Origin: Chloroflexota bacterium
Lineage (GTDB): Bacteria; Chloroflexota; Anaerolineae; 4572-78
Direction: 5' to 3'
DNA length: 64,000 nt
NCBI GenBank assembly: GCA_011192195.1
Contig: DUEH01000003.1
Coordinates: forward strand, 3,734 to 67,733
The notes beneath the pieces are model-generated. The model had not been told where the DNA came from. It was given only the letters and a program-made list of their open reading frames with translations, and did not search any database. Both the position numbers and the translations under genes were made by a program. Shown here one piece after another: positions 12,852-57,057 of this stretch (positions within the stretch are counted from its first letter, which is position 1; the number at the start of each line of letters is the position of its first letter).

Positions 12852-12944
12852 ATGCCAGGGAAATGATGGCTCGATGGAGTACAATGAGAATGAAATTTTG
12901 AGCCAAAATGTGGTATAATTCAAGTAAGCAGTAAGTCACTCGCT

Positions 12945-12984
12945 CCCAAACTGATCCTTCGGCTTCGCTCAGGACAAGGTTTGG
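12945..12984. repeat. CCCAAAC...GTTTGG interspersed element, copy 1 of 3
   Basis: Sequence is cccaaactgatccttcggcttcgctcaggacaaggtttgg. Near-identical copies lie at 48328-48380 and 51647-51707. Confidence 0.9.
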
Positions 12985-13045
12985 AAACGAGAATAATTTT
13001 TCACTTTCCATTTTTCATTCTTCACTGTTTTTCAGGAGGCCCCAA

Positions 13046-21550: not shown

Positions 21551-21684
21551 GCAGTTTTCCAAAAGTAACACACAAAACGACAAATGACGAAGGACGAAGG
21601 ACGAAAAATGTTAGCTTCACAAGTAATTCGTCCTCCGTCATTCGTCTTTCGTCGAGGCGTTATGCGCGACTTTTGGAAAACTGC
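21551..21684. repeat. 134-nt nested palindrome with (GACGAAG/GACAAAT)n inner arms
   Basis: gcagttttccaaaagt (21551-21566) is the exact complement of acttttggaaaactgc (21669-21684). Inner arms are 21578-21605 and 21627-21654. It sits in the leader of the BMP gene. Confidence 0.9.
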
Positions 21685-21715
21685 CTGTAAACCAATTATT
21701 CTAAAGGAGAACAAA

Positions 21716-22747
21716 ATGAAAAATCGTTTCAAAACATGGACTTTGCTGGCCGTGATGCTAATGGTCAGCCTGATGGGCAACGCTTGCGGCGGCGGCGACG
21801 CTGCCGACACTGGCGGCGGCGATTTCAAAGCCGCTATTGTCACCGACACCGCCGGATTGGGCGACCAATCCTTCAACGACTCGGCCAATCGCGGTTTGGA
21901 GAAAGCCAAAGCAGACCTGGGCATCGAGACGCAAGTCTACGAAACTTCTCAACCCTCTGACTACGAGCCAAGTCTGTCCCGCGCCCCTTCGCAGGGCAGC
22001 GACATCACCTTTGCTATCGGCTTTTTGATGACCGACGCCGTAACCAACGTTTCCAGCCAAAACGCCGACGCCAAATACGCCATCATCGACTCGGTAGTTG
22101 AGGCTGATAATGTAGCTTCGCTTGTTTTCAAGGAAGAGGAAGGCTCTTTCCTGGTCGGCGTGGTGGCTGGACTAATGACCAAGTCTAATAAAGTCGCTTT
22201 TCTCGGCGGGATGGAAGTACCCCTCATCAAAAAGTTCGAGGCAGGCTTCAAGGCCGGGGTGATGACTGTCAACCCGGATGCGGAAGTGATAGCAACCTAC
22301 GCTGGCGATTTTAACGACCCCGGCAAAGGCAAAGAGGTTGCCCTCAGCCAGTACGCCGCTGGAGCTGACGTGATTTATCACGCTTCGGGCGGCACCGGTC
22401 TGGGCTTGTTCCAGGCTGCGCAGGAAAAAGGCGCCGGCTTCTGGGCTATCGGCGTGGATTCTGACCAGTATGAGCTGGCTCCGGAAAACACCCTGACCTC
22501 GATGATGAAGCGGGTTGATACAGCCGTCTTTGAAACGATCAAGGCTACTAAAGAGGGCAATTTCAAATCCGGCATAACGGTCTTTGGCCTGAAAGAAGAC
22601 GGCGTGGGACTATCGCCGACGACCAACAAGAATACGCCGCAAGATGTAATTGATAAAGCTAACGCGCTTGGCGACAAGATCATCGCGGGCGAGTTTACAG
22701 TACCAACAACCGATGAAGAGTTGGAGAGTTTTACTCCGCCGAAATAA
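21716..22747 (+). CDS. BMP-family (PnrA/Med-like) nucleoside-binding ABC substrate-binding lipoprotein
   Basis: Start at 'MKNRFKTWTLLAVMLMVSLMGNAC' with RBS aaaggaga. 'KAAIVTDTAGLGDQSFND' and 'KVAFLGGMEVPLIKKFEAGF' are BMP-family hallmarks. Confidence 0.85.
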   Translation: MKNRFKTWTLLAVMLMVSLMGNACGGGDAADTGGGDFKAAIVTDTAGLGDQSFNDSANRGLEKAKADLGIETQVYETSQPSDYEPSLSRAPSQGSDITFAIGFLMTDAVTNVSSQNADAKYAIIDSVVEADNVASLVFKEEEGSFLVGVVAGLMTKSNKVAFLGGMEVPLIKKFEAGFKAGVMTVNPDAEVIATYAGDFNDPGKGKEVALSQYAAGADVIYHASGGTGLGLFQAAQEKGAGFWAIGVDSDQYELAPENTLTSMMKRVDTAVFETIKATKEGNFKSGITVFGLKEDGVGLSPTTNKNTPQDVIDKANALGDKIIAGEFTVPTTDEELESFTPPK

Positions 22748-40030: not shown

Positions 40031-41527
40031 CTAAGAATTCTCCGTTAAGGCCAGAAAGCCTTGGTACGCTTCATCCCAGGCGGCGGTATCTTGCGGCAGG
40101 TATTCTTGTACCGGGAAAGAGCGCTTGATAATGGCGCGCCCCTCTGCCAGCGAAGAAATTTCACCCACGGCCAGCATTTGCAGCAAAATATTCCCCAGCG
40201 CCGTCGCTTCGATGGGGCCGGTTACAACGCGCTTGCCGGTGGCATTGGCAGCAAATTGATTGAGCAGCTTGTTCCGCGCGCCGCCGCCCACAATGTGGAT
40301 GACTTCAATGGCCGAACCGGTCATCCCCTCCAGCTTTTCCACGCTCCAGCGATATTTCAAGGCCAGACTTTCCAGCGCCGCGCGGACGATGCTTCCTGTG
40401 CTTGGGGGGATGGTCTGTTCTGTACGGGTGCAGTAGGCGCTGATTCTGGCGGGCATATTACCCGGTGCAAGAAAGTCGTTATCTTCCGGGTTGACCAAAC
40501 AAGCCAGGGGGGGCGCATCGGCGGCCAGTTGGGTCAGTTTGTCGTAGGAATAGGCGTGACCTTCTTTTTTCCAGATGCGTTTACATTCCTGAACCAGCCA
40601 CAATCCCATAATATTTTTCAATAAGCGAATGGTGTTTTGTACGCCGCCTTCATTGGTAAAATTATAAGCCAACGATTGCTCATTGATAATGGGCGCGGGT
40701 GTTTCTACCCCCATCAGCGACCACGTACCCGAGCTGAGGTAGGCAAAGCGCCCCGCATCCTCTGCCGATGCCGGCACGGCGGCAACCGCGCTGGCGGTAT
40801 CGTGCGCGCCGGGGGCAATGACCGGGACGCGCTCATTCAACCCCAACTCTTCAACAATGGCGGGCAGCACCGTCCCCAGTTTTGCGCCCGGGCGGATAAG
40901 TGATGGGAAGATATCGGTGGGCAGGCCCAACTTTTTCAGCAGCGGCGCAGCCCAGATATTGTTTTGCATATCAAACATCTGGCTGGTGCTGGCGATGGTG
41001 TATTCGTTGGCTTTTTGGCCGGTGAACCAGTAGTTGAAGAGGTCGGGCATAAAAAGGAGCGTATTGGCAATTTGCAGCGCGGGGTCGTTTTGCTGCGCCA
41101 TTGCAAATAGCTGAAAAAGGGTATTGAGCTGCATAAACTGGATGCCCGTTTGGGCGAATATCTCTTCACGGGAGACAAGTTCAAAGACTTTTTCAAGCAT
41201 CCCGTTAGTGCGGCTGTCTCGGTAATGGTAAGGGTTGCCGATGAGGTTTCCCGCGCTGTCCAGCAAGCCGAAATCTACGCCCCAGGTATCAATACCCAGG
41301 GCCGCAAGCTGAATGCCGCGACCTTTGACTGCTTTTGCCAGACCGTTTTTCATTTCCTGAAACAGACGCAGCGTGTCCCAGTGCAGGCTGCCGCTCACCC
41401 GTACCGGGCCGTTGGGGAAGCGGCTGATCTCTTCCAGCGATAATTTCTCGCCGTCAAAACGCCCCACCAGCGCCCGACCGCTTTCCGCGCCTAAGTCCAG
41501 AGCCAGGAAGTTTTTTGTTTTAGCCAT
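40031..41527 (-). CDS. rhaB: Rhamnulokinase
   Basis: Strong collinear resemblance to RhaB: 'LALDLGAESGR', 'IDTWGVDFGLLD', 'YRDSRTNG', 'GIQFMQLNTLFQL', 'YLSSGTWSLMG', 'IHIVGGGARNKLLNQ', 'GPIEATALGN'. Start chosen at 'MAKTKNF' with RBS agaggag. Confidence 0.9.
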   Translation of the reverse strand: MAKTKNFLALDLGAESGRALVGRFDGEKLSLEEISRFPNGPVRVSGSLHWDTLRLFQEMKNGLAKAVKGRGIQLAALGIDTWGVDFGLLDSAGNLIGNPYHYRDSRTNGMLEKVFELVSREEIFAQTGIQFMQLNTLFQLFAMAQQNDPALQIANTLLFMPDLFNYWFTGQKANEYTIASTSQMFDMQNNIWAAPLLKKLGLPTDIFPSLIRPGAKLGTVLPAIVEELGLNERVPVIAPGAHDTASAVAAVPASAEDAGRFAYLSSGTWSLMGVETPAPIINEQSLAYNFTNEGGVQNTIRLLKNIMGLWLVQECKRIWKKEGHAYSYDKLTQLAADAPPLACLVNPEDNDFLAPGNMPARISAYCTRTEQTIPPSTGSIVRAALESLALKYRWSVEKLEGMTGSAIEVIHIVGGGARNKLLNQFAANATGKRVVTGPIEATALGNILLQMLAVGEISSLAEGRAIIKRSFPVQEYLPQDTAAWDEAYQGFLALTENS

Positions 41528-41539
41528 AGCAGTCTCCTC

Positions 41540-41590
41540 TGAAAACAGGCGAATGTGCGAATGGCGAACAGCGAATAGAACCAATTTTCA
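41540..41590 (-). repeat. Clamped leader module: TGAAAAT - (GCGAATG)n array - GTTTTCA, directly 5' of the SD
   Basis: On the coding strand: tgaaaat (41590-41584), a heptamer run (41578-41549), gttttca (41546-41540), then agaggag and the ATG at 41527. Confidence 0.75.
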
Positions 41591-41781: not shown

Positions 41782-42399
41782 CTACCACTTGCTATAAGAA
41801 TCGCTGTGCCGGCGATACTCGATGAGCTTTTCGCCCAGAATTTCCGCTTCAAAAATAATGTCGCTCACTTCTTCTAATGCAGATGCCCATTGGTAGGCAT
41901 CTTCCAGCGTTTGACCGATGGCAAAGCTGCCATGTCCGCGTTGCATAACAATTTTATAGCCGCGCAGCGCTTCCGCAACAGTGTCAGCCATTTCTTGCGA
42001 ACCGGAAGCGTACTCTACCGAGACAACGGGGATTTTGCGCAGCAGATAAGAGCCTTCGTTATCAATAGGAATAATCTCGTCCCGTGAAAGGCTCAGGGTG
42101 ATGGCGGTGCGCGGATGGTTATGAATAATTGCCAGTGCGGCGGTTTGGCGGTAGATCTCCCGATGCACAATCAGTTCAGTGCTGGCAAGCGCTATGCCGC
42201 TGTCTTTGCCGTGCAGGCTGGTAATAACCAGATCAGAGGGTTTCAAACGTCCCAACTGCGCGCCGCGTCGCTTGATGATAATTTTATCGCCAATACGCGC
42301 GCTCATATTGCCGCCGTGTGAGCTGGTCAAGCCGGTAATGAAAATATCCCGCCCAATATCGCGGAATTGCTCGTAGAGGCGGGGGTCTATTTTTGACAT
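41782..42399 (-). CDS. Class II aldolase/adducin-domain protein (candidate rhamnulose-1-phosphate aldolase)
   Basis: 205 aa. 'SSHGGNMSAR' and 'HREIY...IIHNHP' are Zn-ligand His motifs of the FucA/RhaD/MtnB fold. It sits between rhaB and the AOR. Confidence 0.8.
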   Translation of the reverse strand: MSKIDPRLYEQFRDIGRDIFITGLTSSHGGNMSARIGDKIIIKRRGAQLGRLKPSDLVITSLHGKDSGIALASTELIVHREIYRQTAALAIIHNHPRTAITLSLSRDEIIPIDNEGSYLLRKIPVVSVEYASGSQEMADTVAEALRGYKIVMQRGHGSFAIGQTLEDAYQWASALEEVSDIIFEAEILGEKLIEYRRHSDSYSKW

Positions 42400-42494: not shown

Positions 42495-44279
42495 TTATAC
42501 CAAATCGTCCAGTTCAAGTTCTTGCAACTTCTCCGGGGTGGGAACGCCGTTTTTGTCCCAGCCGCGGAAGGAATAATATTCTTCCAGCATCGGGGCGAGA
42601 TTGACGGTGTATCCGGCGCTGGGGCCTTCGGCAACTTCTACGTCGAGCAATCGCTTTGGCAAGGTGTCATCGGCGGCGGTGAAGCCTTCGCGCAGGTTGT
42701 AGAGGCGCTCCAGGTTCCAGGTGCGTTCGCCTGCCTTCATCAGGTCGTCGGCGGTGAAGGCTTCGCCGGTGATGGCGGAAAGGATGCGGGCGAAGAAATC
42801 TTCGGCAACGGCCATATTGGTGAATTTGCAGATGACCAGGCTATCAATCATAGCGGCGGCGTCTTGATGCACCGATACGATGCCTGCCTTGCCCTGATAA
42901 GCCAGACGGTCAATCAATCGCGGCAGGGCTAATACTTCTGGCCCCAGCATATTGCCGCGCATGTGGCACGCGCCTCGGTTAGATGTGGCAAAAAGCAAGC
43001 CTTGTCCTTGCATACCGCGCGGGTCGTAGGCGGGAATTTCCAGCTTTTTCACGCTCATCGAAAGTTCCGGCACGCCGCGCGCTTCGGCAAAGCGGTAGCT
43101 GCCGTCGGAGAGACCCGCTGCGCCCAACCCTTGCCGGTAGGCGATGTTTTGAATGGTATCCAGCAGCAAGTCTGCGCGACCAAAGCGCAGGCCGCCTTCA
43201 ATGACGCCGCGTTCGGTCATTTCCATTGCGCAACCAATGGCATTCCCTACAGAGATGGTATCCAGCCCCAAATCGTTGCACAAACGATTGGCGTCGGCAA
43301 TGGTTTCCAGATTGTCTATGCCGCACTGCGCGCCAAAACTCCAGACGCTTTCGTATTCGGGACCTTCGCCTTCCCCTTTTTCTGTTTTGGTAATGCGCGT
43401 GCAGGCGATGGGACAAGCCCAGCAGGCTTGATTTTTGACCAGGATTTGCTCGGTGATGGCTTCGCCGCTGATCGCTTCTGCGCCTTCAAATTGCGATTGC
43501 TGGAAGTTGCGGGTGGGCAGCGCGCCAATGGCGTTGACCAGATTCATCACCACCGACGTGCCAAACTCCGGCAGCGCTTGCGAGGTGAGCGGGCTGGCTT
43601 TGAGCAGTTTGCCCGTTTCATATAGCATAAATTTGAATTGGTCTTTATCGGCGGGTTTGTTGCGTTCTTTGCCTTCTACCACAATGGCTTTCAGGTTTTT
43701 ACTGCCCATCACAGCGCCGGGTCCGCCGCGAGCCAACGCGCGTTCGCCATCGTTCATAATTGCCGCCATCAGCGAAAGGTTTTCACCGGCGGGTCCAATG
43801 CACAGCACGTTGCGTTTGTTGTTGTTTTGCCCCAGCGCCTGAGTGGTTTGGCTGACGCTTTTACCCCACAAGTTTTGCGCATTTTTCAGTTCTACGCCCT
43901 TGGGGGTAATTTCAATCATTACGGGATTTTTGGCTTTGCCGCGCACAATCATCACGTCGTAGCCGGTGCGTTTGAACTGCATCCCCCACCAGCCGCCGCT
44001 GTTGGCGTCCAGGATTGTGCCGGTGAGCGGGCTTTTGGTTGTTACCGAAAAGCGGTTGCTGGTTTGTATGCCGCTGGCGGTAAAAGGACCGGCGGTAAAT
44101 ATTAACGCATTTTCCATCGAAAGCGGGTCAACGCCGGGTCCAACTAAATCCCACAGCAACCGCGCGCCCAAACCGCGTCCACCCAAAAAGAGCCGCGCCA
44201 TTTTTTGGTCGAGAGGACGAGTCTCGATGGCGCCGGTCTCTAGGTTAATGTCAAGTATTTTTCCTGACCATCCATGCAT
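42495..44279 (-). CDS. Aldehyde:ferredoxin oxidoreductase (tungsto/molybdopterin AOR family)
   Basis: 594 aa. N-terminal 'GWSGKILDINLETGAIETRPL...FLGGRGLGARLLWD', a 4Fe-4S Cys region 'QACWACPIACTR', and the AOR C-terminal domains. Confidence 0.9.
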   Translation of the reverse strand: MHGWSGKILDINLETGAIETRPLDQKMARLFLGGRGLGARLLWDLVGPGVDPLSMENALIFTAGPFTASGIQTSNRFSVTTKSPLTGTILDANSGGWWGMQFKRTGYDVMIVRGKAKNPVMIEITPKGVELKNAQNLWGKSVSQTTQALGQNNNKRNVLCIGPAGENLSLMAAIMNDGERALARGGPGAVMGSKNLKAIVVEGKERNKPADKDQFKFMLYETGKLLKASPLTSQALPEFGTSVVMNLVNAIGALPTRNFQQSQFEGAEAISGEAITEQILVKNQACWACPIACTRITKTEKGEGEGPEYESVWSFGAQCGIDNLETIADANRLCNDLGLDTISVGNAIGCAMEMTERGVIEGGLRFGRADLLLDTIQNIAYRQGLGAAGLSDGSYRFAEARGVPELSMSVKKLEIPAYDPRGMQGQGLLFATSNRGACHMRGNMLGPEVLALPRLIDRLAYQGKAGIVSVHQDAAAMIDSLVICKFTNMAVAEDFFARILSAITGEAFTADDLMKAGERTWNLERLYNLREGFTAADDTLPKRLLDVEVAEGPSAGYTVNLAPMLEEYYSFRGWDKNGVPTPEKLQELELDDLV

Positions 44280-44516: not shown

Positions 44517-45158
44517 TTACATTTGCATCAATGCCAGAGCGTCGTTGGCGGCGGCGGAGGCGTCCGGCGAGAATCGGTCTGCGCCGACGCTTTCGGCAAA
44601 GGCGCCGGTGACGGGCGCGCCGCCGATCATCACTTTTACCTGCTCGCGCAATCCCGCCTCTTTCAGCGCCTCGATGACCGTTTTCATCGAGGTCATCGTG
44701 GTAGTGAGCAGGGCGCTCATCCCCAGAATTTCCGGTTGGTGTTCGCGGATGGCTTCCACAAATTTGGCGTGAGGAACGTCAGTGCCCAGGTCAATCACTT
44801 CAAAGCCTTTGCCTTCCATCATCATCCCCACCAGGTTTTTGCCGATGTCGTGCAGGTCGCCTTGAACGGTTCCCAAGATGACTTTGCCGATGGGTTCCAC
44901 GCCGCCTTCCACTAATTTTGGGCGCAGAATGGTCAGTCCGGCTTTCATGGCTCTGGCGGCAATGAGCATTTCCGGCACAAAGATTTCCTGCGCTTCGTAC
45001 AGAGCGCCCACTTCGCCCATTGCTTCGATCATCCCCTGATTGAGAATGACCGAGGGATCGCCGCCCAAATCCAGCGCTTCCTGAACGCCTTCGCTGGCTC
45101 CCGGCGCGTCGCCATCAAGGATGCTTTCATAAATTTTGTCCAGTACGTCGTCTAGCAT
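44517..45158 (-). CDS. Corrinoid (B12-binding) protein, MtaC/MtbC-like
   Basis: 213 aa. N-terminal helical cap domain and a Rossmann B12-binding domain with 'GDLHDIGKN' (DxHxxG) and 'GMSALLTTT', '...VMIGGAP'. Confidence 0.9.
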   Translation of the reverse strand: MLDDVLDKIYESILDGDAPGASEGVQEALDLGGDPSVILNQGMIEAMGEVGALYEAQEIFVPEMLIAARAMKAGLTILRPKLVEGGVEPIGKVILGTVQGDLHDIGKNLVGMMMEGKGFEVIDLGTDVPHAKFVEAIREHQPEILGMSALLTTTMTSMKTVIEALKEAGLREQVKVMIGGAPVTGAFAESVGADRFSPDASAAANDALALMQM

Positions 45159-45204: not shown

Positions 45205-46443
45205 TTACTGAAATCCGCCGCTGGGGTCAGCCAAACCGCGTTCAGATTGAATTTTTTCTTCATAGCCGCTGGCTCGATAGCCGGCGATGGGGTGGCTGGG
45301 GACCCCCATTTCCCGGCGAATTTGCGCCAGCAAGGGGCGCACATCGCTGCGGTAGGCGTTGTTGAGAATGTCATGCGCGCCCAGTATGTCGCCGTTGCGC
45401 TGCGCTTCGGCCAGTTGTTTTCTGGGAACCAGCAGGGCTTTGGCGTAGGATTCCTGACAGTTTAGCACGGAGTAGATGATGGGCGCCATCTTGCCCTCGA
45501 TGTTGTGACACTGGTCAAGCATATAAGCAACGTTTTGAGCGGTGGCGCTGGTAATTTCGTCGTCGCTCAGTTCGGCTCCCACCAGTTCGTTGTAAATGAG
45601 GAACAGTTCGTAGGGGTTGACGCTGCCCACGATCAGATCGTCATCGGCGTATTTGCGGTTGTTGAAGTGGAAGCCGCCCAGTCGCCCCTCGTCCAGCAGA
45701 AAAGCCACAATTTGTTCTATGTTGACGCCCTGGGCGTGGTGTCCCAGGTCTACCAGAACCTGCGCTTGCGGGCCAAGTTTTAGCGCCCAGGCGTAGGCGG
45801 TTCCCCAATCGGGGATGTCGGTGCTGTAGAAGGCCGGCTCAAAGAATTTATACTCAATGAGCATACGGCTGTTTGCGGGCAGGTGTTGGTAGATGGTGCG
45901 CAATCCGGCCTCAAAGCGACGTTTGCGCCCGCGCAGGCTGTCTTGCCCGGCGTAGTTGGTGCCGTCGGCAAACCACAGGCTCAGGGTGTCGCTTTTGAAT
46001 TTGGTCATCAAATTGCAACATTCCAGAATGTGATCCAGCGCCCGTTCCTGAATAGCGGGGTCAGGGTTGCCCAGCGAGCCTAATTTGTACTCGTCGTCCT
46101 GAAAAACATTGGGATTGACCGCGCCAATACGAATGCCCTGCGCTTCGGCGTACTGGCACATAGCGTCGTAGTCGTCGTCCGCCGGGCGATCCCAGGGAAT
46201 GTGGACAGCGACGGTAGGGGTGATGCCGGTCATTTTGTGAACCATTGCCGCATCATCGAGCTTTTGTTGGGTGGTAGTAGCAGCGCCGGGCCAGGCAAAG
46301 GCCTTGAAGCGGGTGCCGCTGTTGGCGTAACCCCAACTGGGGGTTTCTATGTGTTGGTTTTTCAAGGCGGTTTTGACTTGCTCAATATCGATGCCAAGAT
46401 TGCTCAGGTCTTCTACCAGTAGGTCATAAGCTTTGTTTGACAT
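45205..46443 (-). CDS. rhaI: L-rhamnose isomerase (Pseudomonas stutzeri / xylose-isomerase-like TIM-barrel type)
   Basis: Collinear with that family: '[12 protein letters not shown]', 'HIPWD', '[11 protein letters not shown]', 'VLVDLGHHA', '[15 protein letters not shown]', 'YRASGYEEK'. Start at 'MSNKAYDLL' with RBS aaggaga. Confidence 0.9.
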
Positions 46444-46464
46444 TTTGCGTCTCCTTCTGAGGGC

Positions 46465-46513
46465 GGGTCTGTCTCTCGTTCCCACGCTCTGCGTGGGAAC
46501 AAGCGGCAGACCC
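46465..46513. repeat. Hairpin of the GTTCCCACGC...GCGTGGGAAC family
   Basis: Perfect inner stem gttcccacgc/gcgtgggaac (46478-46500) within outer gggtctg/cagaccc. Relatives lie at 8039-8058, 31340-31374 and 44464-44487. Confidence 0.9.
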
Positions 46514-46516
46514 CTG

Positions 46517-47617
46517 CTATTTATACACTCCGTGTTTTTTCACGGCGGCGATGAAGGCTTCAACGTTCTCCATAGAGACGTCAGACTGCACAATATGGGC
46601 CGGCGAACACATGTAGCCGCCGCCCGCGCCCAGAACGCGGATCTTTTCGGCCACGTTGGTCTCTATTTCTTCCGGCGTTCCTTGCGGCAACAAGTATTGC
46701 TGGTCAATAGCGCCCCAGAAAGAGAGTTTGTCGCCCAGACGAGATTTCAGGGCGTCCGGTTCGTGGCCGGGTACGTTGGGCTGAACCGGGTTGAAGACAT
46801 CAACGCCAATCTCAACCAGGTCTTCCAGAATAGGGGCCACCGCGCCGTCGGTGTGGTACATGATCATCACATTGGGGTTGACCGATTTTAGTTCCTGGAA
46901 TACTTCGGCATGGCGCGGCTTGAACAGGTTACGCCACATTTTGGGAGAAATCAACATGCCGTTTTGAGCGCCAAAATCATCGCCGGCCCATACGCCGTCA
47001 ACGCCCAGTTCAACCAGTTGTTTGCCAATTCCAATGCTGAATTCCTTGACCTTGTCCAGAAGCGCCTCGATGTAAGCTTCGCCTACGGCCATATCTATCA
47101 TAAATTTTTCCAGCCCCACCAGATGCCACGACATTTCAAAAATTGTCAACTCTAAATCGCCGATGATGAAGTAATTCTTTTTGTACATCTCGGCGTACTT
47201 TTTGGCGTCGTCAAAACGACCTTTCGCGTAGGGATCGGGGAAAGGGTGATTGCTTACATCTTGCACGGTGGTTGCGTTGCGCAAGGGGGCCTCTATGGTT
47301 TGCATATACAAGGGACCTTGCTCCATCAACATCCCAAATTCGTTGATGATTCGGCCTTCCTGGGGAACCGGATGGCTGTAGCCGCGCGGCAGGCTGCCGC
47401 CAACTACCACGCAATCGCTGCCCATTGCCACGCGCAATTCATTGGCTGAAATGCGATAGGTGACATCCTCAAAATATGAGGTGGTGTAGTGGATGGGAAT
47501 GTTATATTTTTTGCCAAAATCGTCGGTTAGTTTACGGCATAAATCAAACTGAAGCGGCACCCGATCAGGGGTTCCGCTGCGGCGCAGGGCGGTGAGTACA
47601 CGTTCTTTTGAGTTCAT
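46517..47617 (-). CDS. Uroporphyrinogen-decarboxylase (URO-D) family protein, MtaA/CmuA-like methyltransferase candidate
   Basis: 366 aa. '[17 protein letters not shown]' N-terminus and TIM-barrel URO-D-like layout. It has 'MYHTDG' at the position where MtaA-type enzymes carry the H-x-C zinc ligands. Confidence 0.8.
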
Positions 47618-47628
47618 TTCAAAACCTC

Positions 47629-47952
47629 CTAATCCAAATGAAAGACCTCTTCCAGTTCAATCATATTTTCATCGGCGTGAGCGCCGCCCAGGTCTTCAAA
47701 GTAGGGGGCCATAAAGTCTTGCCATTTGGCGTTGATGTCTTCTTTAGTCATCCCTTCCAGCGATGCCTGAAAACTTTCTTCGGCTTCAAAGTAGCCAAAG
47801 AGCAGGCCGTCTGCGCGCATAAAAAGGGAGTAGTTGCGCCAGCCGGTTCGCCGTAAAGCGTCCAGCATTTCCGGCCATACGGTTTCATGATGTTTTTTGT
47901 ATTCTTCTATTTTGTCTTTTTTGACTTTAAGAAGAAAACCGATGCGTTTCAT
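47629..47952 (-). CDS. rhaM: L-rhamnose mutarotase
   Basis: 107 aa. 'EEYKKHHETVWPEMLDALRRTGWRNYSLF...LLFGYFE' matches RhaM closely. Confidence 0.85.
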   Translation of the reverse strand: MKRIGFLLKVKKDKIEEYKKHHETVWPEMLDALRRTGWRNYSLFMRADGLLFGYFEAEESFQASLEGMTKEDINAKWQDFMAPYFEDLGGAHADENMIELEEVFHLD

Positions 47953-47957
47953 GTTCT

Positions 47958-48297
47958 TTATCCTTGCTGAATTTTGCAGGGCGTTTGGTGCAGCTTTTCC
48001 GCGCCTGTTCCGGTAATCAGGTAGCCGTCTTCAATTCGCAGGCCGCCCCACGGGGTGCTGAATAGAGGAATGTCAACCGATATGATCATATTCTCCGGGC
48101 ATCAGGACACAAACCGGCTCGAAATGAACCGGGAAATCGGCCAGCCACCGGGCGTGCGCCGGGCCAAATACTGCCCGATCATCGGCACAGGCTACCAGGA
48201 AATCAAGGTCATGGCGGGCCATCATTTTCTGTACTTTTTGCCACCGTTTACGATATTCCGCGACGGGTATTGTTGGTGTTGAGCCTTCAACTGCCAT
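47958..48297 (-). pseudogene. M24-family (Xaa-Pro peptidase/creatinase-like) gene remnant with an internal deletion
   Basis: An N-terminal 74 codons (creatinase-N-like '...RWQKVQKMMARHDLDFLVACADDR') end at a TGA. One frame over, '...GGLRIEDGYLITGTGAEKLHQTP...*' is a typical M24 C-terminus. The ~250-aa catalytic core is missing. Confidence 0.65.
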
Positions 48298-48327
48298 TTG
48301 AATTTTCGCGTCCTTTGGTTCGTTTTA

Positions 48328-48380
48328 CTGGTTCCCAAACTGATCCTTCGGTTTCGCTCAGGACAAGGTTTGGGAACCAG
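48328..48380. repeat. CCCAAAC...GTTTGGG interspersed element, copy 2
   Basis: ctggttcccaaactgatccttcggtttcgctcaggacaaggtttgggaaccag followed by T6, 12 nt from the binding-protein stop. Confidence 0.9.
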
Positions 48381-48391
48381 TTTTTTACAAA

Positions 48392-51300
48392 CTACTCGGC
48401 AGCCGCTTCAACGTTATCTGCATTGTAAACGGTGAAGGGACCCATCAGCACGCGCAGTCCTGCATCGCGGGTGGGGTCTTTCTCGATGGTGTAGGTTCCC
48501 ATCCGACCGGCCTCAAAGCTGACGCCTTCTGCGGCTTCCATCTGACCCGAAGCGATCAGGTAGGTGGTGTAGTAGGTCAGGTAGCCCAGGTCAACAAAGC
48601 TCCACAAGGCGAACTCGGGGGCGCAGCCGTTGAGGGTGTAGGATACCATCTCGGCGGGTAAACCAAGACCGCTAACCTTCACCTCGTCGCACAAGCCTTC
48701 GTCCTGCATAGCTTTGGCGGCGGAGGCAATGCCGACAGTTGTCGGGGCCATAATCAAGCCCAGGTCGGGGTATTTGTCAACCAGCGCCAGGGCCTGGTTG
48801 TAGCTGTCTTCGGACTGGTCGTTACCGTAAACAATGTCGACCAGTTCCAGCGCGTCATATTTGGAATCTTTGAGCGCTTCTTCCATAGCGGCAATCCAGG
48901 CGTTCTGGTTGGAGGCGTCGGGGGAGGCGGACAACACCGCAAACTGGCCGCCGTCATCGCCCAAAATGCTCAGGGCCATATCGGCCATAACTACGCCGGT
49001 TTCATCAAAATCTACCTGAGCAATGAAAACCTGCTCACCCTCGGCGGAGGGAATGGGAGAGTCCCAGGTAACAACGGCAGCGCCGGAGTCGAGCGCGGCT
49101 TGCGCAGCCGGAGCAATCTGGTCGCCGGCGTTGTTGGAGATCATGATCCCGTCCTGCCCTTGAGTGGCGGCGGTAGTGACAATCTCGATCTGACCTGCCA
49201 CACTGTTTTCGGGGGTCGGGCCAAGAAATTCCAGGTTGCCGGGATTGTCCAGTTCAGCGTGAGCTTCTTGCGCGCCGTTATTGGCCTGGTCAAAGACCAG
49301 AATACCCAGGAACTTGGGTAGCAGCACCATATTCAGTTCGACGCCCGGTTCAGGAACAACCACATCACCGGTATCTGCCGTTGCGGACTCGACTTCTGCG
49401 CCACCGGCGGCGGCTTCAACATTGTCTGCTGTGTAAACAGTGAAGGGTCCCATCAGCACGCGCAGACCGGCATCGCGGGTGGGGTCTTTCTCGATGGTGT
49501 AAGCGCCCATTCGACCCGCTTCAAAGCTGACGCCTTCTGCGGCTTCCATCTGTCCGGTAGCAATCAGGTAGGTGGTGTAGTAGGTCAGGTAGCCCAGGTC
49601 AACAAAGCTCCACAGGGCGAACTCGGGGGCGCAGCCGTTGAGGGTGTAAGATACCATCTCGGCGGGCAGACCCAAACCGCTGGTTTTTACTTCGTCGCAC
49701 AAGCCTTCGTCTTGCATAGCTTTGGCGGCGGCGGCGATACCAACGGTGGTCGGGGCCATAATCAGGCCCAGGTCGGGATATTTGTCAACCAGCGCCAGGG
49801 CCTGGTTGTAGCTGTCTTCGGACTGGTCGTTGCCGTAGACAATATCGACCAATTCCAGCGCATCATACTTGGAATCTTTAAGCGCCTCTTCCATAGCGGC
49901 AATCCAGGCGTTCTGGTTAGCCGCATCCGGTGAAGCGGACAGCACGGCAAATTGGCCGCCGCCATCACCCAGAATGCTCAGGGCCATATCGGCCATTACC
50001 ACGCCAGTTTCGTCAAAGTCTACTTGCGCGATGAATACCTGCTCGCCCTCGGCAGAGGGAATGGGGGAGTCCCAGGTAACAACAGCCGCGCCGGCATCCA
50101 TTGCCGCTTGCGCTGCCGGAGCAATTTGGTCGCCGGCGTTGTTGGAAATCATAATCCCGTCCATTTCCTGAGTGGCGGCGGTGGTAACAATTTCAATCTG
50201 TCCGGCTACGCTGTTTTCGGGGGTCGGGCCAAGGAATTGCAGTTCGCCGGGGTTGCCCAGTTCGGCGTGGGCTTCTTGCGCGCCTTCGTTGGCTTGGTCA
50301 AAGACCAGAATACCAAGGAATTTGGGGAGCAGGACCAGGTTGGCTTCCATGCCGGTTTCCGGCGTTACGGTTTCGCCACTTGCCGCGCCGGAATCTGCCG
50401 GTTCTGCCGCGGCTACTTCCGCGCCGCCGGCGGCGGCTTCAACATTATCTGCTGTGTAAATGGTGAAGGGCCCCATCAGCACGCGCAGACCTGCGTCGCG
50501 GGTGGGGTCTTTCTCGATGGTGTAGCTTCCCATTCGACCTGCTTCAAAAGTGACGCCTTCTTCGGCCTCAATTGCGCCGGTAGCCAGTTGGTTGGCAACG
50601 TAGTAGCTGAGGTAGCCCAGGTCAACAAAGCTCCACAGAGCGAACTCTGGGGCGCAGCCGTTGAGGGTGTAAGACATCATTTCGGCGGGCAGGCCAAGAC
50701 CGCTGACTTTTACATCGTCGCACAAGCCTTCATCCTGCATTGCTTTGGAGGCGGCGGCAATGCCGACAGTTGTCGGAGCCATAATCAGACCCAGGTCGGG
50801 GTATTTGTCGACCAGCGCCAGGGCCTGGTTGTAGCTGTCTTCGGACTGGTCATTACCGTAGACAATGTCGACCAATTCCAGCGCGTTATACTTGGAATCT
50901 TTGAGCGCTTCTTCCATAGCGGCAATCCAGGCGTTCTGGTTAGCTGCATCCGGCGAAGCAGAGAGAACGGCAAATTGACCGCCGTCATCTCCCAGGATGC
51001 TCAGAGCCATATCGGCCATAACCACGCCGGTTTCATCAAAATCTACCTGAGCCACAAAAACCTGCTCGCCTTCGGCGGAGGGAATGGGGGAATCCCAGGT
51101 GACAACGGTCATGCCGGCATCCATTGCCGCTTGGGCGGCGGGGACAATCTGGTCGCCGGCGTTGTTGGAAATCATAATAGCGTCAACGCCCTGGGTGGCG
51201 GCGGTGGTCACAATTTCAATCTGACCGGCTACGCTGTTTTCGGGGGTCGGCCCAAGAAATTCCAGGTTGTCGGGGTTGCCGATTTCGCCGGCAGCTTCCA

Positions 51301-51589
51301 ACGCGCCTTCGTAAGCCTGGTCAAAAACCAGAATGCCCAGGAATTTGGGCAGCAGTACCATTTGCAAATCGTCGCCAGAGGGCGCTTCTTCGGCTGCGGC
51401 TTCTTCCTCTTCAGCAGCCGGTTCTTCAGCAGCTTCTTCCTGCGCAGCCGGTTCTTCAGCAGCTTCTTCCTGCGCAACCGGTTCTTCGGCAGGTTCCGAG
51501 GGGTCCGGTGTTGCCTGTTCGCTGCCGCAACTTGCCAGCAGCAGGGCCAGAATGACGATCAAAACAAACAAGAATTTTCTGTGTTTCAC
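48392..51589 (-). CDS. Lipoprotein with three tandem complete RhaS-type (rhamnose ABC) substrate-binding modules
   Basis: Lipobox 'LLLASC', an acidic E/A/P linker, then three ~330-aa periplasmic-binding-protein units each starting '...[15 protein letters not shown]' and ending '...LMGPFT(I/V)Y.ADNVEAAA'. In-frame DNA periodicity is 1008 and 1023 nt. Confidence 0.85.
51415..51493. repeat. 30-bp tandem repeat (2.6 copies) encoding the acidic linker
   Basis: cagccggttcttcagcagcttcttcctgcg occurs at 51415-51444 and 51445-51474, then a partial copy. It encodes '[10 protein letters not shown]' repeats on the minus strand. Confidence 0.9.
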
Positions 51590-51646
51590 GTTACTCCTCC
51601 TATTAAAACAATTTTAGATTTTGGATGTTAGATTTCCATCTATTTA

Positions 51647-51707
51647 TTCCCAAACTGATCCTTCGGCTTGCGCTCTTTGAGCGCCGCTCAGGACAAGGTT
51701 TGGGAAC
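51647..51707. repeat. CCCAAAC...GTTTGGG interspersed element, copy 3 (with an internal mini-hairpin insertion)
   Basis: ttcccaaactgatccttcggcttGCGCTCTTTGAGCGCcgctcaggacaaggtttgggaa, in the same orientation as copy 2. Confidence 0.9.
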
Positions 51708-51753
51708 GAGGGCACTTCATCTGCATTGATTCTCAATAGGCTGCTCCTTTTTT

Positions 51754-51816
51754 AATTATCAATTATCAATTGTTAATTGTTAATTGTCAATTGTTAACTG
51801 ATAATTGTTCATTGTT
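51754..51816. repeat. Tandem heptamer array (AATTRTY)n, 9 units
   Basis: aattatc x2, aattgtt x2, aattgtc, aattgtt, aactgat, aattgtt, cattgtt. It encodes the last ~9 codons ('NNEQLSVNN') and the stop of the permease gene. Confidence 0.9.
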
Positions 51817-52821
51817 CTTGCTGCTTGCTTCGGCTAACCGGCGGCGATCGAGATAGGCGCGTACAGTTTGGGTCATATTTGGCACCAGCACCGACAGGAT
51901 AAGCAACATGCCGATAACCCCGGTTTGCACGTGGCCGGTAATATTTGCCAGCGACATACCGTTACGCAAGTTCAACACAATCATAATTGATAACAACACC
52001 CCGTAGATAGAGCCGGAACCGCCAAAGATACTGACGCCGCCCAGCAATACCATGGTGATGATGTCCAGTTCAAAGCCCAGGGCCAAATCGCCGCGAACAG
52101 CGCCCAGCCGGGCGGCAAACAGTAAACCGGCCAACGCAGCCACAGTACCGGAGGCTATGAACAAAATTGTTTTTACCCGATTTACTTTTACGCCGGAGTA
52201 TTCGGCCACTTCCCGGCTGTTGCCAATGACATACACGTACCGGCCAAAACCGGAGTATTCCAACAGCAAAATGGCCGCAATTACAAACAAAAAGAAAAGA
52301 AGCAAAGCCAGGGGAAACGGACCGACAAGCGGCTGCTGGCCCAAGGTGTCGAACCAGACGGGGAAATCGCCAATAGACTTGTCTTCCAGCAACACGCGGG
52401 CAAAACCTCTGAAGCCAATTAACATAGCCAGCGTTACCACCAGCGAGGGCAGGCCAACTTTGGCAATCCAAAAGGCGTTAAACGCGCCGCCAAGCACGCC
52501 AATTAGAAGCCCGGCCAACAAAGCGACCGGGATGGGCGCGCCCTGGCTGTAAAGCCAGGCCAGCGTACAAGCCGATAATCCCATCATCGAGGACACAGAC
52601 AAATCTATTTCTGCGTTGATAATGATAAAAGCCATAATCAGGGCTACAATTATTTTCTCGATGGATAGAATGAACAGGTTCATTTGATTACCAATGCTAA
52701 GGTAGTTGGGCGCAAGGGATGTGTTGCCGATGATAATCAGTATCAACACGAGCAGAAGGAACCCTTCCCAACTTTTTAGCTTATCCCATACTACTGACAG
52801 GAAGTTTTTATCATGCGACAT
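51787..52821 (-). CDS. Rhamnose-type ABC transporter permease (RhaQ-like)
   Basis: Multi-TM ORF of the ribose/rhamnose permease family. Start at 'MSHDKNF' with RBS aggagg, overlapping the upstream stop by 11 nt. Confidence 0.85.
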
Positions 52822-53878
52822 GTCCAGGTTCCTCCTGAGTTTGAGTTTCTTCGACATCTTGTTGGGTCATTTGTAGCTCACTCCGCGCCCACAAGTCTCG
52901 CAGGCGGTTCATAATTACAAAGTCAGCGGCTACGGCCAGCAAAATCATTAAGCCCAGCAGGGCCTCTCGCCAGAATTGGCTGATTTCCGCCCACCTAATC
53001 AGGCTGTTATCAATAACGTCAATCAATATGGCTCCCAGAAGCGTACCAATAATTGTACCGGCACCGCCGTTGATATTGGCTCCGCCCACAACCGCCGCCG
53101 CCACCGATTTTAGCTCTATCCCCAGGCCGGCCACCACGGTAATATTGCCAAATCGAGCCAGAAACATAAAACCGGCCAATCCGCTCAAAGCGCCACACAA
53201 CACAAAGGCAAAAAAGACAATCCGCTGCGAGGGAAAACCGGCCACTTTAGCGGCATCGGGGTTTGAACCAATGGCATACAGGCGGCGGCCATAGGGCAGA
53301 TAGCTAAGCATTAGTTGAAAAATAATAACCACCGCTACCATAATTCCTACCAGCAACCTGAAATCGAGTTTGTCTATGCTAAAGATATTGGCCCGAGGTA
53401 AGTCTATAATCCAGGCCGGCAGGCTGGACGTAATTACAGTTTGGGCGTCGGAGTACTCTACCAACATGGTGCGGAACAGAGCCAGCGTACCTAGCGTAAC
53501 AATAATGGCCGGCACCCGCCCATAAGCCACCAATACGCCGTTAAACGCGCCCATTGCCGCCCCAACGCCGATAGCCATTAGAACGACCGCAAGAGGAGCT
53601 ATCTCATTGTTATCGGCCAGTTGCTGGCCCACAAAATAGGCGGTAAAGCCTACAATAGAGCCAACAGACAGATCGATGTTTCGCGTTAACACCACCAAAG
53701 TTTGTCCAACGGCAACTACTGCGATAATAGCCACACTGGTTGAAATCCGATTAAAAAAACGGGGGCTGAGATAGTTTTCTATTTGAGTGGCAAAAAAGAT
53801 AATGACCATAATGATGAGTACAACAAGGACAAGTTCTCTAATTTGCTCCGGTCTAAAGCGGCGCATCAACGCGTTCAT
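52811..53878 (-). CDS. Rhamnose-type ABC transporter permease (RhaP-like)
   Basis: 355-aa multi-TM ORF. The start overlaps the ATPase stop by 4 nt. Confidence 0.85.
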
Positions 53879-55389
53879 TGGCTAATCTCCTCGGTTAGGT
53901 GGCTTTGCCCCATTGCGGCAGTCATAACAATTTCCTGGGTGGCCTCTTCGCGGTTAAATATGCCCATTTGTTTGCCCTCGCGCATAACCAAAATACGGTC
54001 GCTCATAGCCAGCGCCTCCGGCAAGTCTGATGAGATGAGGATTATGGCCAGCCCCTGCTCGGCCAACTCATTGATAATGTGGTGAACTTCGGCTTTGGCC
54101 CCCACATCGATGCCGCGGGTTGGTTCATCAAAAATAAACAGTTTGGGTTCGGCGTTGAGCCATTTGCCGAGCATAACCTTTTGCTGATTACCGCCGGACA
54201 GTTTACCCACCTCGTGATTTACAGATGGGGTGCGGATGGTGAGCCGTTTACGGTAATCCTCGGCGGTGGCTTTTTCTCTGCTGTGTTTTACCAACCCCAG
54301 ACCGCTTAAATATCTTTTGAGCGTTGGCAGCGAAATGTTAGAGGTGATTGACATAGGCATAGTCAGCCCAAACTGCCGCCGGTCTTCTGTTAGGTAAGAA
54401 ATTCCGCATTTAAGCGCCTGTTCCGGCGATTTCATCGTTAGCGGCTCGCCTTCAAAGATGATTTCGCCGGCGTCTGCCGGCTCGATGCCAAACAGGGCCA
54501 GCCCCACATCGGTGCGCCGCGAGCCAACCAGCCCGGCAAAGCCCAGTACCTCGCCGCGCCGCACGTCAAAATTAATATCCGAGAAAACGCCTTCTTTACC
54601 CAACCCCCGCGCCGATACCAGCACCTCGCCTTTTTCCGCCTGGCTTTTGGCAAAATAATCGCCAACTTCACGGCCCACCATATCGCGAATAAGGCTGTCG
54701 TGGGTAACATCGCCGGTAATGTTGGTAGAAATGTGCCGGCCGTCGCGGAACACGGAGATACGGTCGGAAATTTTGAAGACCTCTTCCAGGCGGTGGCTAA
54801 TAAACAGTACGGCGACGCCTTGTTCTCGCAGGGTATTAGCCACTTTGAACAACTGCGCCACCTCGTGCGCGGAAAGCGAGGCGGTTGGCTCGTCCATAAT
54901 CAACACCCGCACATCCAGCGAGATAGCTTTGGCAATTTCAACGGCTTGTTGGGCGGCCAGGGTAAGACCGCGGGCGGGCATTTTTACATCGAGCTTAACA
55001 TCCAGCTTTTCCAGAATCGACTCGGCGTCTTTGTACATCTTTTTCCAACTTACTACCGCGCCCCGGTCCCGGTGGCTGATAAAGATATTTTCGGCCACAT
55101 TTAAATCCGGGAAAACGAGCGGTTCCTGATAAATGGCAGCCACACCGTGCGACTGCGCTTGCTGCGAGTTGTGGATGTGGACGGGTTGCCCATCCAGTAA
55201 AATATTGCCGGTATCGGGCCGGTAGATGCCGGTCATTGTCTTTATCAAGGTCGACTTGCCGGCTCCGTTTTCACCTACCAAGGCATGTATCTCGCCGGGG
55301 TAGAGGGTTAAAGAGACATTATCAAGAGCCTGAGTCATATCGAAGCGTTTGGAAATGTTTTTCATTTCCAAAACAGGTTTTTTATCCAT
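53875..55389 (-). CDS. Rhamnose-type ABC transporter ATP-binding protein, duplicated ATPase (RhaT-like)
   Basis: Walker A 'GENGAGKST', signature 'LSGGNQQKV', two ABC domains, RBS caggaga. Confidence 0.9.
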
Positions 55390-55414: not shown

Positions 55415-56185
55415 TTATACCAGAACTACATCTACATTGCGTTGACGTACTTCTTCAACCAAATCCTCGGGGGCGCTTGTATCGGTAAAAATGCTTTCGA
55501 TTTTATCAAGCTGGGCAAAGGTGTAGGCGGCTGCTTTGCCCCATTTACGGGTATCTGCCAGACCGATTACGCGCTTGCAATATTTTATCATAGCCCGTTT
55601 CATGACTACTTCTTCACGATTCACATCGGTTAAGCCTTCGTTGGCGGTAACGCCGCGTGCGCCAAAAAAACCAATTTGAATATTTATATCTTCAATTGAC
55701 GCGCTTTGAAGTTGCCCTACCAGCGAAATGGAGGTTCGCCGCAAACTGCCGCCGGGCAGAATCACGTAAATCTGCGGCGCGTCAAGTAGATTGAAGGCCA
55801 CTCTGAGGCTGTTGGTAACAACCGTTAATTCTGAAAGTTTTTTAATATGAGGAATAATGGTCTGGACGGTGGTGCTGGCATCAAGAAAGATGGTATCGCC
55901 GTAGTGAACCAGTTTGGCCGCGGACTGGCCTATACGAGCTTTTTGCGCCGCGTATTGCTGCTGGCGTAAATCAAAGGAGAGTTCCGGTAAAGCGCTTGTG
56001 GAGGTTGCGCCTCCGCGAGTGCGCAGCAATAAGCCTTGATCGCTTAAGGCTTGTAAATCCTGGCGGATAGTTACTTCTGACACATCAAAGGCGGCGCTAA
56101 GTTTGCTAACCGAAAGTTGTCCGGCCTCGCCCAATGCGCTCAGAATTTGTTGTCTGCGCTGCGCCAGTTGATGCACTTTACCCAA
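55415..56185 (-). CDS. DeoR-family transcriptional regulator (candidate rhamnose regulator)
   Basis: HTH '[38 protein letters not shown]' plus a DeoR C-terminal sugar-phosphate-binding domain. Probable TTG start at 56185, 6 nt after agggagg (or GTG at 56176). Confidence 0.8.
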
Positions 56186-56249
56186 AAGAAACCTCCCTGT
56201 CACTTTTGGAAATTGTTGTAAACTGCAAGTTTCGTAAGAAATCGAAAGT

Positions 56250-56278
56250 ATTGTAATGCAAAAGAAACAAGCCGTCAA
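56250..56278 (-). promoter_or_regulatory. Sigma-70-like promoter (TTGACG-17-TACAAT) for the DeoR-rhamnose operon
   Basis: On the minus strand, TTGACG lies at 56278-56273 and TACAAT at 56255-56250 with an exact 17-nt spacer. An inverted repeat tttcg-N8-cgaaa (56230-56247) sits just downstream as a possible operator. Confidence 0.5.
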
Positions 56279-56298
56279 ATTTTGATTCTGAAGCGCTC

Positions 56299-57057
56299 TC
56301 ATCTCATCAATAACCCGGCGTTCACGTCAATTGTGGACCCGGTGATGGCCGCTGCTGCCGGCGAACATAGAAAAACGACGGCTGCGGCAACCTCATCCGG
56401 CTGCATAAATCGTGCCAGAGGGATTTTGGCTTGCAGGTCCTGCCTGACCTGCTCCGACCAGTTGGCCGTAAGATCGGTTTCGATGGTGCCCGGCGCGACG
56501 GCGTTGACGGTAACGCCATACGGGGCCAGATGCCGGGCGAAAGATTTGGTCAACCCCAGGAGACCGGCCTTGCTGGCCGCATAGTGCATCCCTACGGCAA
56601 CTCCGCCCATCTGTCCGGCTGCCGAGGCAATATTGATTACCCGTCCCCAACCGGATGCTTGCAAGCCCGGCAACGCTGCCTGAGTGCATAAAAATGCGCC
56701 CTTGAGGTTTATCGCCAAAACCCGATCCCATTCTGCCTCGCTGATCTCGTCCGGCGGGGTCAGCGGACATACGCCGGCGTTATTGACCAATATTTCGATC
56801 TGACCTATATCTTCAAACGCAGAATGGACGGCATCGGCATTGGACACATCGAAAACGGAAGTGACCGTATTGCCGCCCTGATCAGCAATCAAGCGAGCCG
56901 TCTCATCCAGGGCGTCGGCATCCACATCTCCCAGTATTATTTTAGCGCCCAACCCGGCCAGTTGCCGGCTGATGGCGCGTCCAAGTCCCTGGCCGGCGCC
57001 CGTTACCAGGGCTGTGCAACCGGCGAGGTATTGTTCAGGCATGGTTTTCTCCTTCAA
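56299..57057 (-). CDS. Short-chain dehydrogenase/reductase (SDR)
   Basis: 'ALVTGAGQGLGRA' and the catalytic 'YAASKAG'. Confidence 0.85.
   Translation of the reverse strand: MKEKTMPEQYLAGCTALVTGAGQGLGRAISRQLAGLGAKIILGDVDADALDETARLIADQGGNTVTSVFDVSNADAVHSAFEDIGQIEILVNNAGVCPLTPPDEISEAEWDRVLAINLKGAFLCTQAALPGLQASGWGRVINIASAAGQMGGVAVGMHYAASKAGLLGLTKSFARHLAPYGVTVNAVAPGTIETDLTANWSEQVRQDLQAKIPLARFMQPDEVAAAVVFLCSPAAAAITGSTIDVNAGLLMR

Follow-up and report, generated by a model that had tools for sequence, protein, structure and literature searches.

A predicted lipoprotein with three tandem sugar-binding modules in an importer operon of a Chloroflexota bacterium

The three-module gene and its product

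A stretch of 64,000 nucleotides (nt) from contig DUEH01000003.1 of a Chloroflexota bacterium (called 'the window' here, with all positions counted within it) was analysed around one gene of the minus strand, the product of which carries three complete substrate-binding modules in series behind a single lipoprotein signal. The modules are named M1, M2 and M3, and the gene with its start region and its parts is laid out as follows (aa, amino acids; pLDDT, predicted local distance difference test of the AlphaFold model).

48392-51589, minus strand: open reading frame (ORF) of the three-module substrate-binding lipoprotein; complete, uninterrupted, 1065 aa; three stretches matching PF13407 and three matching TIGR02637
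51594-51600, minus strand: Shine-Dalgarno sequence GGAGGAG, 4 nt upstream of the GTG start codon, read from the sequence
51527-51589, minus strand: signal peptide with lipobox, read from the sequence
51365-51526, minus strand: acidic Glu/Ala/Pro tether, aa 22-75; predicted to be disordered, pLDDT below 50 at residues 21-68
51414-51496, minus strand: 30-bp tandem repeat inside the tether (Tandem Repeats Finder: period 30, 2.8 copies, 94% matches, score 145)
50429-51364, minus strand: M1, aa 76-387; membrane-proximal, most divergent, carries Y258N
50342-50428, minus strand: linker 1, aa 388-416 (29 aa); pLDDT below 50 at residues 389-404
49406-50341, minus strand: M2, aa 417-728
49334-49405, minus strand: linker 2, aa 729-752 (24 aa); pLDDT below 50 at residues 730-741
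48398-49333, minus strand: M3, aa 753-1064; distal, with the single residue E1065 left before the stop codon

The N-terminus of the protein consists of MKHRK, a hydrophobic core and the lipobox LLLASC, which fits the bacterial lipoprotein pattern [LVI][ASTVI][GAS]C; Cys21 is the predicted lipidated residue. The 30-bp repeat codes for part of the acidic tether, in 10-residue units. The cores of the three modules are each 312 aa long and align with one another without a gap, and the direct repeats in the ORF have start-to-start spacings of 1008 and 1023 nt, as marked by the sequence TGAAGGG at 48433, 49441 and 50464. M2 and M3 differ at 16 of 312 aa and at 117 of 936 nt (12.5%), with 92 of these nt differences at third codon positions, while M1 differs from M2 and M3 at 35 and 37 aa (131 and 146 nt), respectively, 12 of its differences lying at module positions 253-272. 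Nei-Gojobori ratios of replacement to silent divergence (dN/dS) among the three modules were 0.13, 0.11 and 0.05 (dS 0.52-0.66), which supports purifying selection on each module. An initial annotation, made from the letters of the window alone, had described the uninterrupted ORF with its lipobox and its acidic linker from a 30-bp repeat, the three complete binding modules, the TGAAGGG landmarks with their offsets, M1 as the most divergent copy (including a segment that it quoted) and purifying selection on each copy, all of which were recovered. Its account of M2 and M3 stood as to the 16 residues and the predominance of third codon positions, but its figure of roughly 10% for their difference in DNA was slightly low.

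Repeats of about 1 kb are able to mislead assemblers, and in two related loci (L016 and L018) a separate single-module paralogue gene stands ahead of a multi-module gene; it is nevertheless extremely unlikely that a faulty assembly, or the reading of separate genes as one in annotation, produced the triplication. Between modules, 12.5-15.6% of nt are different, and no exact repeat in the ORF is longer than 53 nt, a length too short for repeat-driven misassembly with ordinary reads. Stop codons, a start context and a signal peptide are all absent from the linkers. Furthermore, independent assemblies yielded at least 11 further complete three-module proteins with 70-89% identity to that of the window, some from contigs of 0.6 and 1.6 Mb, and contigs of 4.3 and 5.9 Mb carry two-module genes. 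Together with the dS values, these results agree with the earlier claim that neither a fresh duplication nor an assembly artefact is at hand, and the run-through of separate genes, which the initial annotation had named as a refuting outcome, was not seen.

Matches to PF13407 (Peripla_BP_4) summed to 458.3 bits over three stretches (gathering threshold 35.1). The full-length AlphaFold model had a mean pLDDT of 82.8 and a predicted template-modelling (TM) score (pTM) of 0.41; pLDDT below 50 was confined to the three tether and linker segments given above, and no helix was modelled outside the binding modules after the signal peptide. As the pTM speaks for no fixed arrangement between modules, the model is one of three well-folded modules on disordered connectors, with their mutual arrangement not fixed. 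The best Foldseek matches in the PDB were the rhamnose-type binding proteins 4KVF, 4WZZ and 5BQ3, together with the autoinducer-2 receptor LsrB, with TM-scores of 0.8-0.88 normalised to the target and 0.27 to the query over at most 335 columns. Each of these matches spans one module, and no matched solved chain covers more.

The importer operon and its sugar

The binding-protein gene is the last of a transporter operon (DeoR-family regulator, ATPase, permease, permease, binding protein) and is followed on the same strand by genes of sugar catabolism.

55415-56302, minus strand: DeoR-family regulator in a RhaR-like position
53875-55389, minus strand: ATP-binding cassette (ABC) ATPase with two ABC_tran domains (PF00005, two stretches)
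52811-53878, minus strand: first of two ABC permeases (NCBIfam matches; synteny)
51787-52857, minus strand: second ABC permease, BPD_transp_2 type (NCBIfam sugar-permease matches under their cut-offs; synteny; Pfam annotation of orthologues)
47629-47952, minus strand: RhaM-like mutarotase (TIGR02625, 69 bits, under the cut-off of 99.6)
46517-47617, minus strand: MtaA/CmuA-like uroporphyrinogen decarboxylase (URO-D) family methyltransferase, within the rhamnose cluster
45205-46485, minus strand: L-rhamnose isomerase RhaI, Gram-positive type (TIGR02635, 574 bits, above the cut-off of 531)
44517-45158, minus strand: corrinoid-binding protein, MtgC/MtbC-like, within the rhamnose cluster
42495-44279, minus strand: aldehyde:ferredoxin oxidoreductase homologue, tungsten-type, adjoining the class II aldolase and FGGY kinase genes
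41782-42399, minus strand: class II aldolase (Pfam)
40031-41584, minus strand: FGGY sugar kinase (Pfam)

An ATPase with two ABC domains is the layout of the carbohydrate uptake transporter 2 (CUT2) type, and, encoded together with it and with BPD_transp_2 permeases, the binding protein belongs to a sugar ABC importer of the RbsABC/RhaSTPQ type. The order ATPase, permease, permease, binding protein (of one, two or three modules), often followed by RhaM, is kept in more than 40 related loci, and this conservation across module numbers indicates that the multi-module gene stands, as an orthologue, in place of the usual binding protein of one importer. That the architecture is as described, that it is real and that it serves the importer as its binding protein is close to certain.

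Although the whole protein scored 798.6 bits against TIGR02637 (RhaS), it did so only through the summing of three modules: single modules reached 266.1 and 281.1 bits, as compared to the cut-off of 342.25 bits that was set for a single-module protein. The LsrB model (NF011937) gave 381.3 bits summed and 128-141 bits per module, below its cut-off of 384. RhaS is the best-matching family of the modules, but as each of them stays short of the equivalog cut-off, they are placed in a sister subfamily of RhaS, which includes single-module orthologues of 75-87% identity from several phyla. Because single modules fall under the RhaS cut-off, the assignment to rhamnose was made from gene context. The L-rhamnose isomerase of the cluster scores above its cut-off, the FGGY kinase and the class II aldolase are later steps of a rhamnose-type pathway, and the RhaM-like gene is conserved beside the binding-protein gene in related loci. 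One two-module homologue lies within a rhaM-RhaA-kinase-RhaEW-LutABC operon, and another adjoins a rhamnosidase gene. These settings match the rhamnose operons (RhaFGHJ) of Chloroflexales that Rodionova et al. (PMC3870299) have described together with DeoR-family RhaR regulators. L-rhamnose or a close 6-deoxyhexose is the most likely ligand, so the label 'rhamnose-type' given to the modules earlier holds as far as the best-matching family and the context go, but not at the level of the single-module score.

Some other genes of the cluster are of interest in their own right. In several Chloroflexota loci the URO-D gene has been conserved beside that of the binding protein (68-77% identity), and genes for the corrinoid protein or URO-D protein also occur at L004, L005, L013, L020, L082 and L083, which suggests, as far as gene content can, a corrinoid-dependent demethylation of an O-methylated deoxy-sugar by the cluster. 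The aldehyde:ferredoxin oxidoreductase gene stands where other rhamnose clusters have the lactaldehyde dehydrogenase RhaW, a homologue lies beside the binding-protein gene of L013, and the enzyme may oxidise lactaldehyde with ferredoxin. The gap of 439 nt between the binding-protein gene and rhaM contains a 74-codon ORF followed by out-of-frame coding-like sequence (47953-48297, minus strand), which looks like a gene remnant. A resemblance of the 74-codon ORF to the N-terminus of a creatinase/prolidase was not borne out, as Pfam gave no match.

The binding-protein gene is also flanked by repeated and promoter-like sequences.

51752-51816: heptad tandem repeat TTAATTG, about nine copies, spanning the permease stop codon and including the sigma-70-like match
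51762-51790, minus strand: sigma-70-like match TTGACA-17-GATAAT (11 of 12 positions, by consensus scan only)
51646-51707, minus strand: hairpin repeat element in the 5' leader of the binding-protein gene (-32 kcal/mol, z -4.6)
48327-48381, minus strand: copy of the hairpin element directly after the stop codon (-29.6 kcal/mol, z -6.9)
12940-12990, minus strand: third copy of the hairpin element

The three hairpins make up an element like repetitive extragenic palindromes (REP) with the 22-nt core TTCCCAAACCTTGTCCTGAGCG, for which zero copies are expected in the window by chance; the core is exact between the leader hairpin and 48355-48376. The element was found in none of 83 related loci and had no Rfam match over the whole window. 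Its absence from the 83 loci makes it genome-specific and places it outside the design of the family. REP elements stabilise the malE transcript, and by analogy the hairpins could stabilise the transcript of the binding-protein gene alone. The sigma-70-like match, a motif unique in the window and situated about 170 nt upstream of the binding-protein start, is a possible promoter of that gene's own, and the heptad repeat may act as a promoter or as an array of regulator-binding sites; its counterpart in the closest relative (L082) is shorter.

Homologues, tethering and changes in module number

Among the 120 best homologues, which were used for module counts, 98 had two modules and 11 had three, while four N-terminally cut proteins had at least three; the nearest was 89% identical to the window protein, which itself, looked up with Val as its first residue, was absent from the protein collection. 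From these results the source could be placed near Ardenticatenaceae and Anaerolineae-type Chloroflexota. All taxon-named multi-module proteins among the matches listed were from Chloroflexota (Ardenticatenaceae, Anaerolineae, Promineifilaceae, Caldilineae and 'Chloroflexia'). The tandem architecture is consequently that of a family and not a one-off, with two-module proteins far commoner than three-module ones. These proteins have been deposited as 'substrate-binding domain-containing protein' or 'rhamnose transport system substrate-binding protein', and a full-text literature search, with subscription papers mostly outside its reach, returned no description of lipid-anchored homotypic tandem binding proteins, only work on GlnPQ and OpuA. 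The architecture is apparently undescribed, and it extends the known principle of tandem domains rather than overturning one. The other binding protein encoded in the window, of the Bmp/PnrA type (21584-22747), is single-module, so the tandem habit is not genome-wide.

More distant relatives showed other combinations. Four proteins (P0130, P0131, P0149 and P0173) carry a relative of the module (42-57% identity) that is C-terminally fused to a receptor-like multi-pass membrane domain, end in Lys/Glu-rich tails and look eukaryotic; judging from the sequence, such a fusion would be a sugar-binding module acting as the sensor of a membrane receptor. A surface protein of 1052 aa (P0124) has one module flanked on both sides by long regions other than periplasmic binding protein, and a secreted protein of 637 aa (P0158) is a heterotypic tandem of a ribose-like binding domain and a RhaS-like module.

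A lipobox was present in 96 of the 112 multi-module homologues with complete N-termini. The tether from the Cys to the first module had a median length of 49 aa (range 30-70), and the linkers, rich in Ala, Glu, Gly, Val and Pro, one of 20 aa (range 13-32), with semi-conserved ends (G-G/P at the start and V-x-A/E-x-P-G ahead of the next module). The disordered, exposed linkers of the window protein and the semi-conserved ends of the family linkers would suit a polyprotein precursor that is cut in the linkers into three separate binding proteins. This we regard as highly improbable, for the linkers have neither lipobox nor signal sequence, so that released modules would be lost from a cell lacking an outer membrane, and the conserved 'PG' segment is also found ahead of the first module and of single-module orthologues, which makes it part of the module and not a cleavage site.

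Single-module orthologues from Alphaproteobacteria, Spirochaetia, SAR324, 'Deltaproteobacteria' and Calditrichota (75-83% identity) lack a tether, and their ordinary signal peptide is cleaved just a few residues ahead of the module, whereas those of Chloroflexota (Caldilineaceae, Roseiflexus, Kouleothrix, Thermoflexales and Chloroflexaceae) carry a lipobox followed by a tether of 38-72 aa. This distribution, in which the multi-module proteins among the matches listed come only from records named as Chloroflexota, is in keeping with the link that the initial annotation had drawn to a tethered, monoderm-type setting; as far as N-terminal sequences tell, module multiplication is tied to the tethered setting, if imperfectly.

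Between modules of the same gene, dN/dS was at most 0.33 in 14 other multi-module genes, and dS ranged from 0.009 in L003 (the modules of which are 100% identical in protein) to above 1.2 in L006, L010 and L011. In a neighbour-joining tree, modules grouped mostly by protein and not by position, with single-module genes interspersed, and over 4950 pairs of two-module proteins the identity of same-position modules exceeded that of cross-position modules by only 0.006. A single ancient duplication followed by independent divergence was ruled out as the general history by this small difference. Among close relatives, M1 of the window protein (WIN_M1) was placed with the first module of the closest relative (P0001_M1), and WIN_M2 and WIN_M3 stood together with P0001_M3. 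At silent sites, the window modules were closer to one another (dS 0.52-0.66) than each was to its positional counterpart in the closest relative (0.97-1.30), while at replacement sites WIN_M1 was closest to P0001_M1 (dN 0.056). No recent gene-conversion tracts were detected in the window gene, where mismatches were spread fairly evenly and no identical run exceeded 53 nt. The pattern would fit concerted evolution with position-specific residues held by selection, and it would equally fit repeated duplication.

At L016 (2377-5407) and L018 (7406-10203), the gene ahead of the multi-module gene encodes a divergent single-module lipoprotein, and at L017 (5409-7690) two single-module genes lie side by side; the adjacent binding proteins of all three loci each have their own lipobox. 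These arrangements indicate two routes to extra binding units, the duplication of whole genes and duplication within a gene. The number of modules changes readily in evolution, with one, two and three modules all observed.

Module equivalence and capture capacity

The modules were compared with 62 single-module orthologues from several phyla, among which 158 columns were at least 95% conserved. Of these columns, 155 were retained in all three window modules, the exceptions being L28I and Y258N in M1 and G59E in M2. The window modules vary between themselves at 43 positions, mainly in columns that are also variable among the orthologues, and most of the divergent segment of M1 falls in such columns. 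The modules of all three-module proteins scored 590-633 bits against a model built from the single-module orthologues, and none was degenerate. In class I binding proteins with the PF13407-type fold, the cleft is lined by loops beyond the C-terminal ends of the beta-strands. The corresponding loops of the window modules, taken from the AlphaFold model as module positions 6-15, 67-71, 91-96, 106-109, 137-146, 171-175, 197-201, 224-229 and 244-246, were identical in sequence except for A141S in M3, and both Ala and Ser are present at position 141 among orthologues. The conserved columns and the predicted cleft loops argue for one ligand for the three modules.

Divergence of the modules in ligand or affinity (for example rhamnose versus methylated rhamnose), broadening the range of the importer in the manner of SBD1 and SBD2 of GlnPQ, is unlikely on these grounds, despite several observations that would suit it. 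The 35-37 differences of M1 are clustered at positions 253-272 and include the change at Tyr258, which is invariant in the 62 single-module orthologues. Across the family, Tyr258 was lost in seven of 114 first modules but in none of 16 middle and 115 last modules, with Asn as the replacement in M1 of the window protein and His or Ser otherwise. The closeness of WIN_M1 to P0001_M1 at replacement sites points to retained position-specific residues, and the MtaA/CmuA-like methyltransferase and the corrinoid protein lie inside the cluster. Against divergence stand the similarity of the cleft loops, the location of most M1-specific changes in columns variable among single-module orthologues and the occurrence of several family members with modules 96-100% identical, in which multiplicity appears to be selected without divergence. 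The earlier suggestion that the modules have slightly different ligand preferences was accordingly not upheld.

In another arrangement, only one module would dock on the permeases, and the distal modules would serve as a reservoir, as an extension into the cell wall or a sheath that passes ligand inward, or in signalling to another partner. To judge from the model, the 54-aa tether with its three modules could extend tens of nm away from the membrane, and the first modules are slightly but consistently more divergent. All modules retain the family-conserved residues, however, and with them the docking surface, if this is among those columns; the locus has no candidate signalling partner; and we know of no precedent for hand-over between binding proteins. 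This arrangement is considered distinctly improbable.

The explanation that appears probable is that three modules for the same sugar multiply the capture sites of one ABC importer. In-frame intragenic duplication would have converted a single-module lipoprotein into one with three complete modules in series, each of which would independently bind the same sugar by Venus-flytrap closure, and the flexible linkers would let the modules take turns in docking on the one pair of permeases. A single round of secretion and lipidation would place three binding sites beside the translocator, and the string would raise the ratio of binding sites to translocators, a high value of which a cell without a periplasm could not get from a freely diffusing protein. 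In E. coli, Type I importers work with a 10-200-fold excess of binding protein, which is required for activity (bioRxiv 10.1101/2025.02.23.639702), and since these importers need a high ratio of binding sites to translocators, a three-module string would help to meet that need. The raised local capture capacity put forward in the initial annotation is thus favoured, from the conserved columns and the near-identity of the modelled cleft loops. The equivalence of the modules and their independent docking are the uncertain steps.

Several points weigh against this explanation. The single-module RhaS scores (266-281 bits, cut-off 342) allow that the ligand could be another sugar, and the RhaM-like protein is also under its equivalog cut-off. 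Docking of each module on the permeases is inferred, and the loss of Tyr258 in M1 may signal a functional asymmetry between modules. A few two-module homologues (P0108, P0110 and P0093) have a signal of the signal-peptidase-I type instead of a lipobox, so lipid tethering is not an absolute correlate of multiplicity. A single module is kept in many Chloroflexota, so the benefit is not universal. A more elaborate scheme, in which Chloroflexota tune the ratio of sites to translocators by module number (one to three) in a single lipoprotein gene, the repeats evolving in concert at silent sites under selection for position-specific residues, and in which a specialised membrane-proximal module (Tyr258 being lost in first modules only) makes the string an ordered relay or graded-affinity device instead of a row of equal units, is doubtful.

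Among known systems, the nearest in function is GlnPQ, which likewise has at least two complete binding domains per polypeptide, with short flexible linkers between them (GlnP, 14 aa; window protein, 24-29 aa), and keeps them beside the translocator in a cell without a periplasm. In GlnP the domains are covalently fused to the permease, whereas the string of the window is a separate lipoprotein with the permeases in separate ORFs; and the two GlnP domains differ in specificity, whereas the three modules here look alike at the predicted cleft positions, A141S aside. The GlnP domains are amino-acid-binding domains of another structural class, while those of the window are PF13407 sugar-binding modules. 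Lacking a permease fusion, belonging to another binding-protein family and having modules that look alike, the window protein is not a member of the GlnPQ class. The tandem domains of Lactococcus lactis GlnP have been reported to fold and bind largely independently (PMC8025302). With the RhaS/RhaF proteins of the RhaSTPQ and RhaFGHJ systems (Rhizobium leguminosarum and Chloroflexales; PMC3870299), the window protein shares the best family and fold, the operon partners and the rhamnose context, but known members are single-module, and each window module is under the RhaS cut-off. The lipid-anchored single binding proteins of Gram-positives and other Chloroflexota likewise have a lipobox, a long low-complexity tether and the same operon position, with one module per anchor instead of three.

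For current work on why Type I importers depend on a large surplus of binding protein, and on how a cell lacking a periplasm attains it, the family provides a natural experiment: the same importer is found with one, two or three linked, near-identical modules on a lipid anchor, and it can be set directly against close single-module orthologues of diderm bacteria, which move freely in the periplasm. The summing of scores over repeats can carry a protein past annotation thresholds, as happened for RhaS here. The tandem-domain principle, studied so far in permease-fused amino-acid systems such as GlnPQ, would be extended to lipid-anchored sugar importers, and the family may offer a simple system for how the number of binding sites and the length of linkers set the rate of transport.

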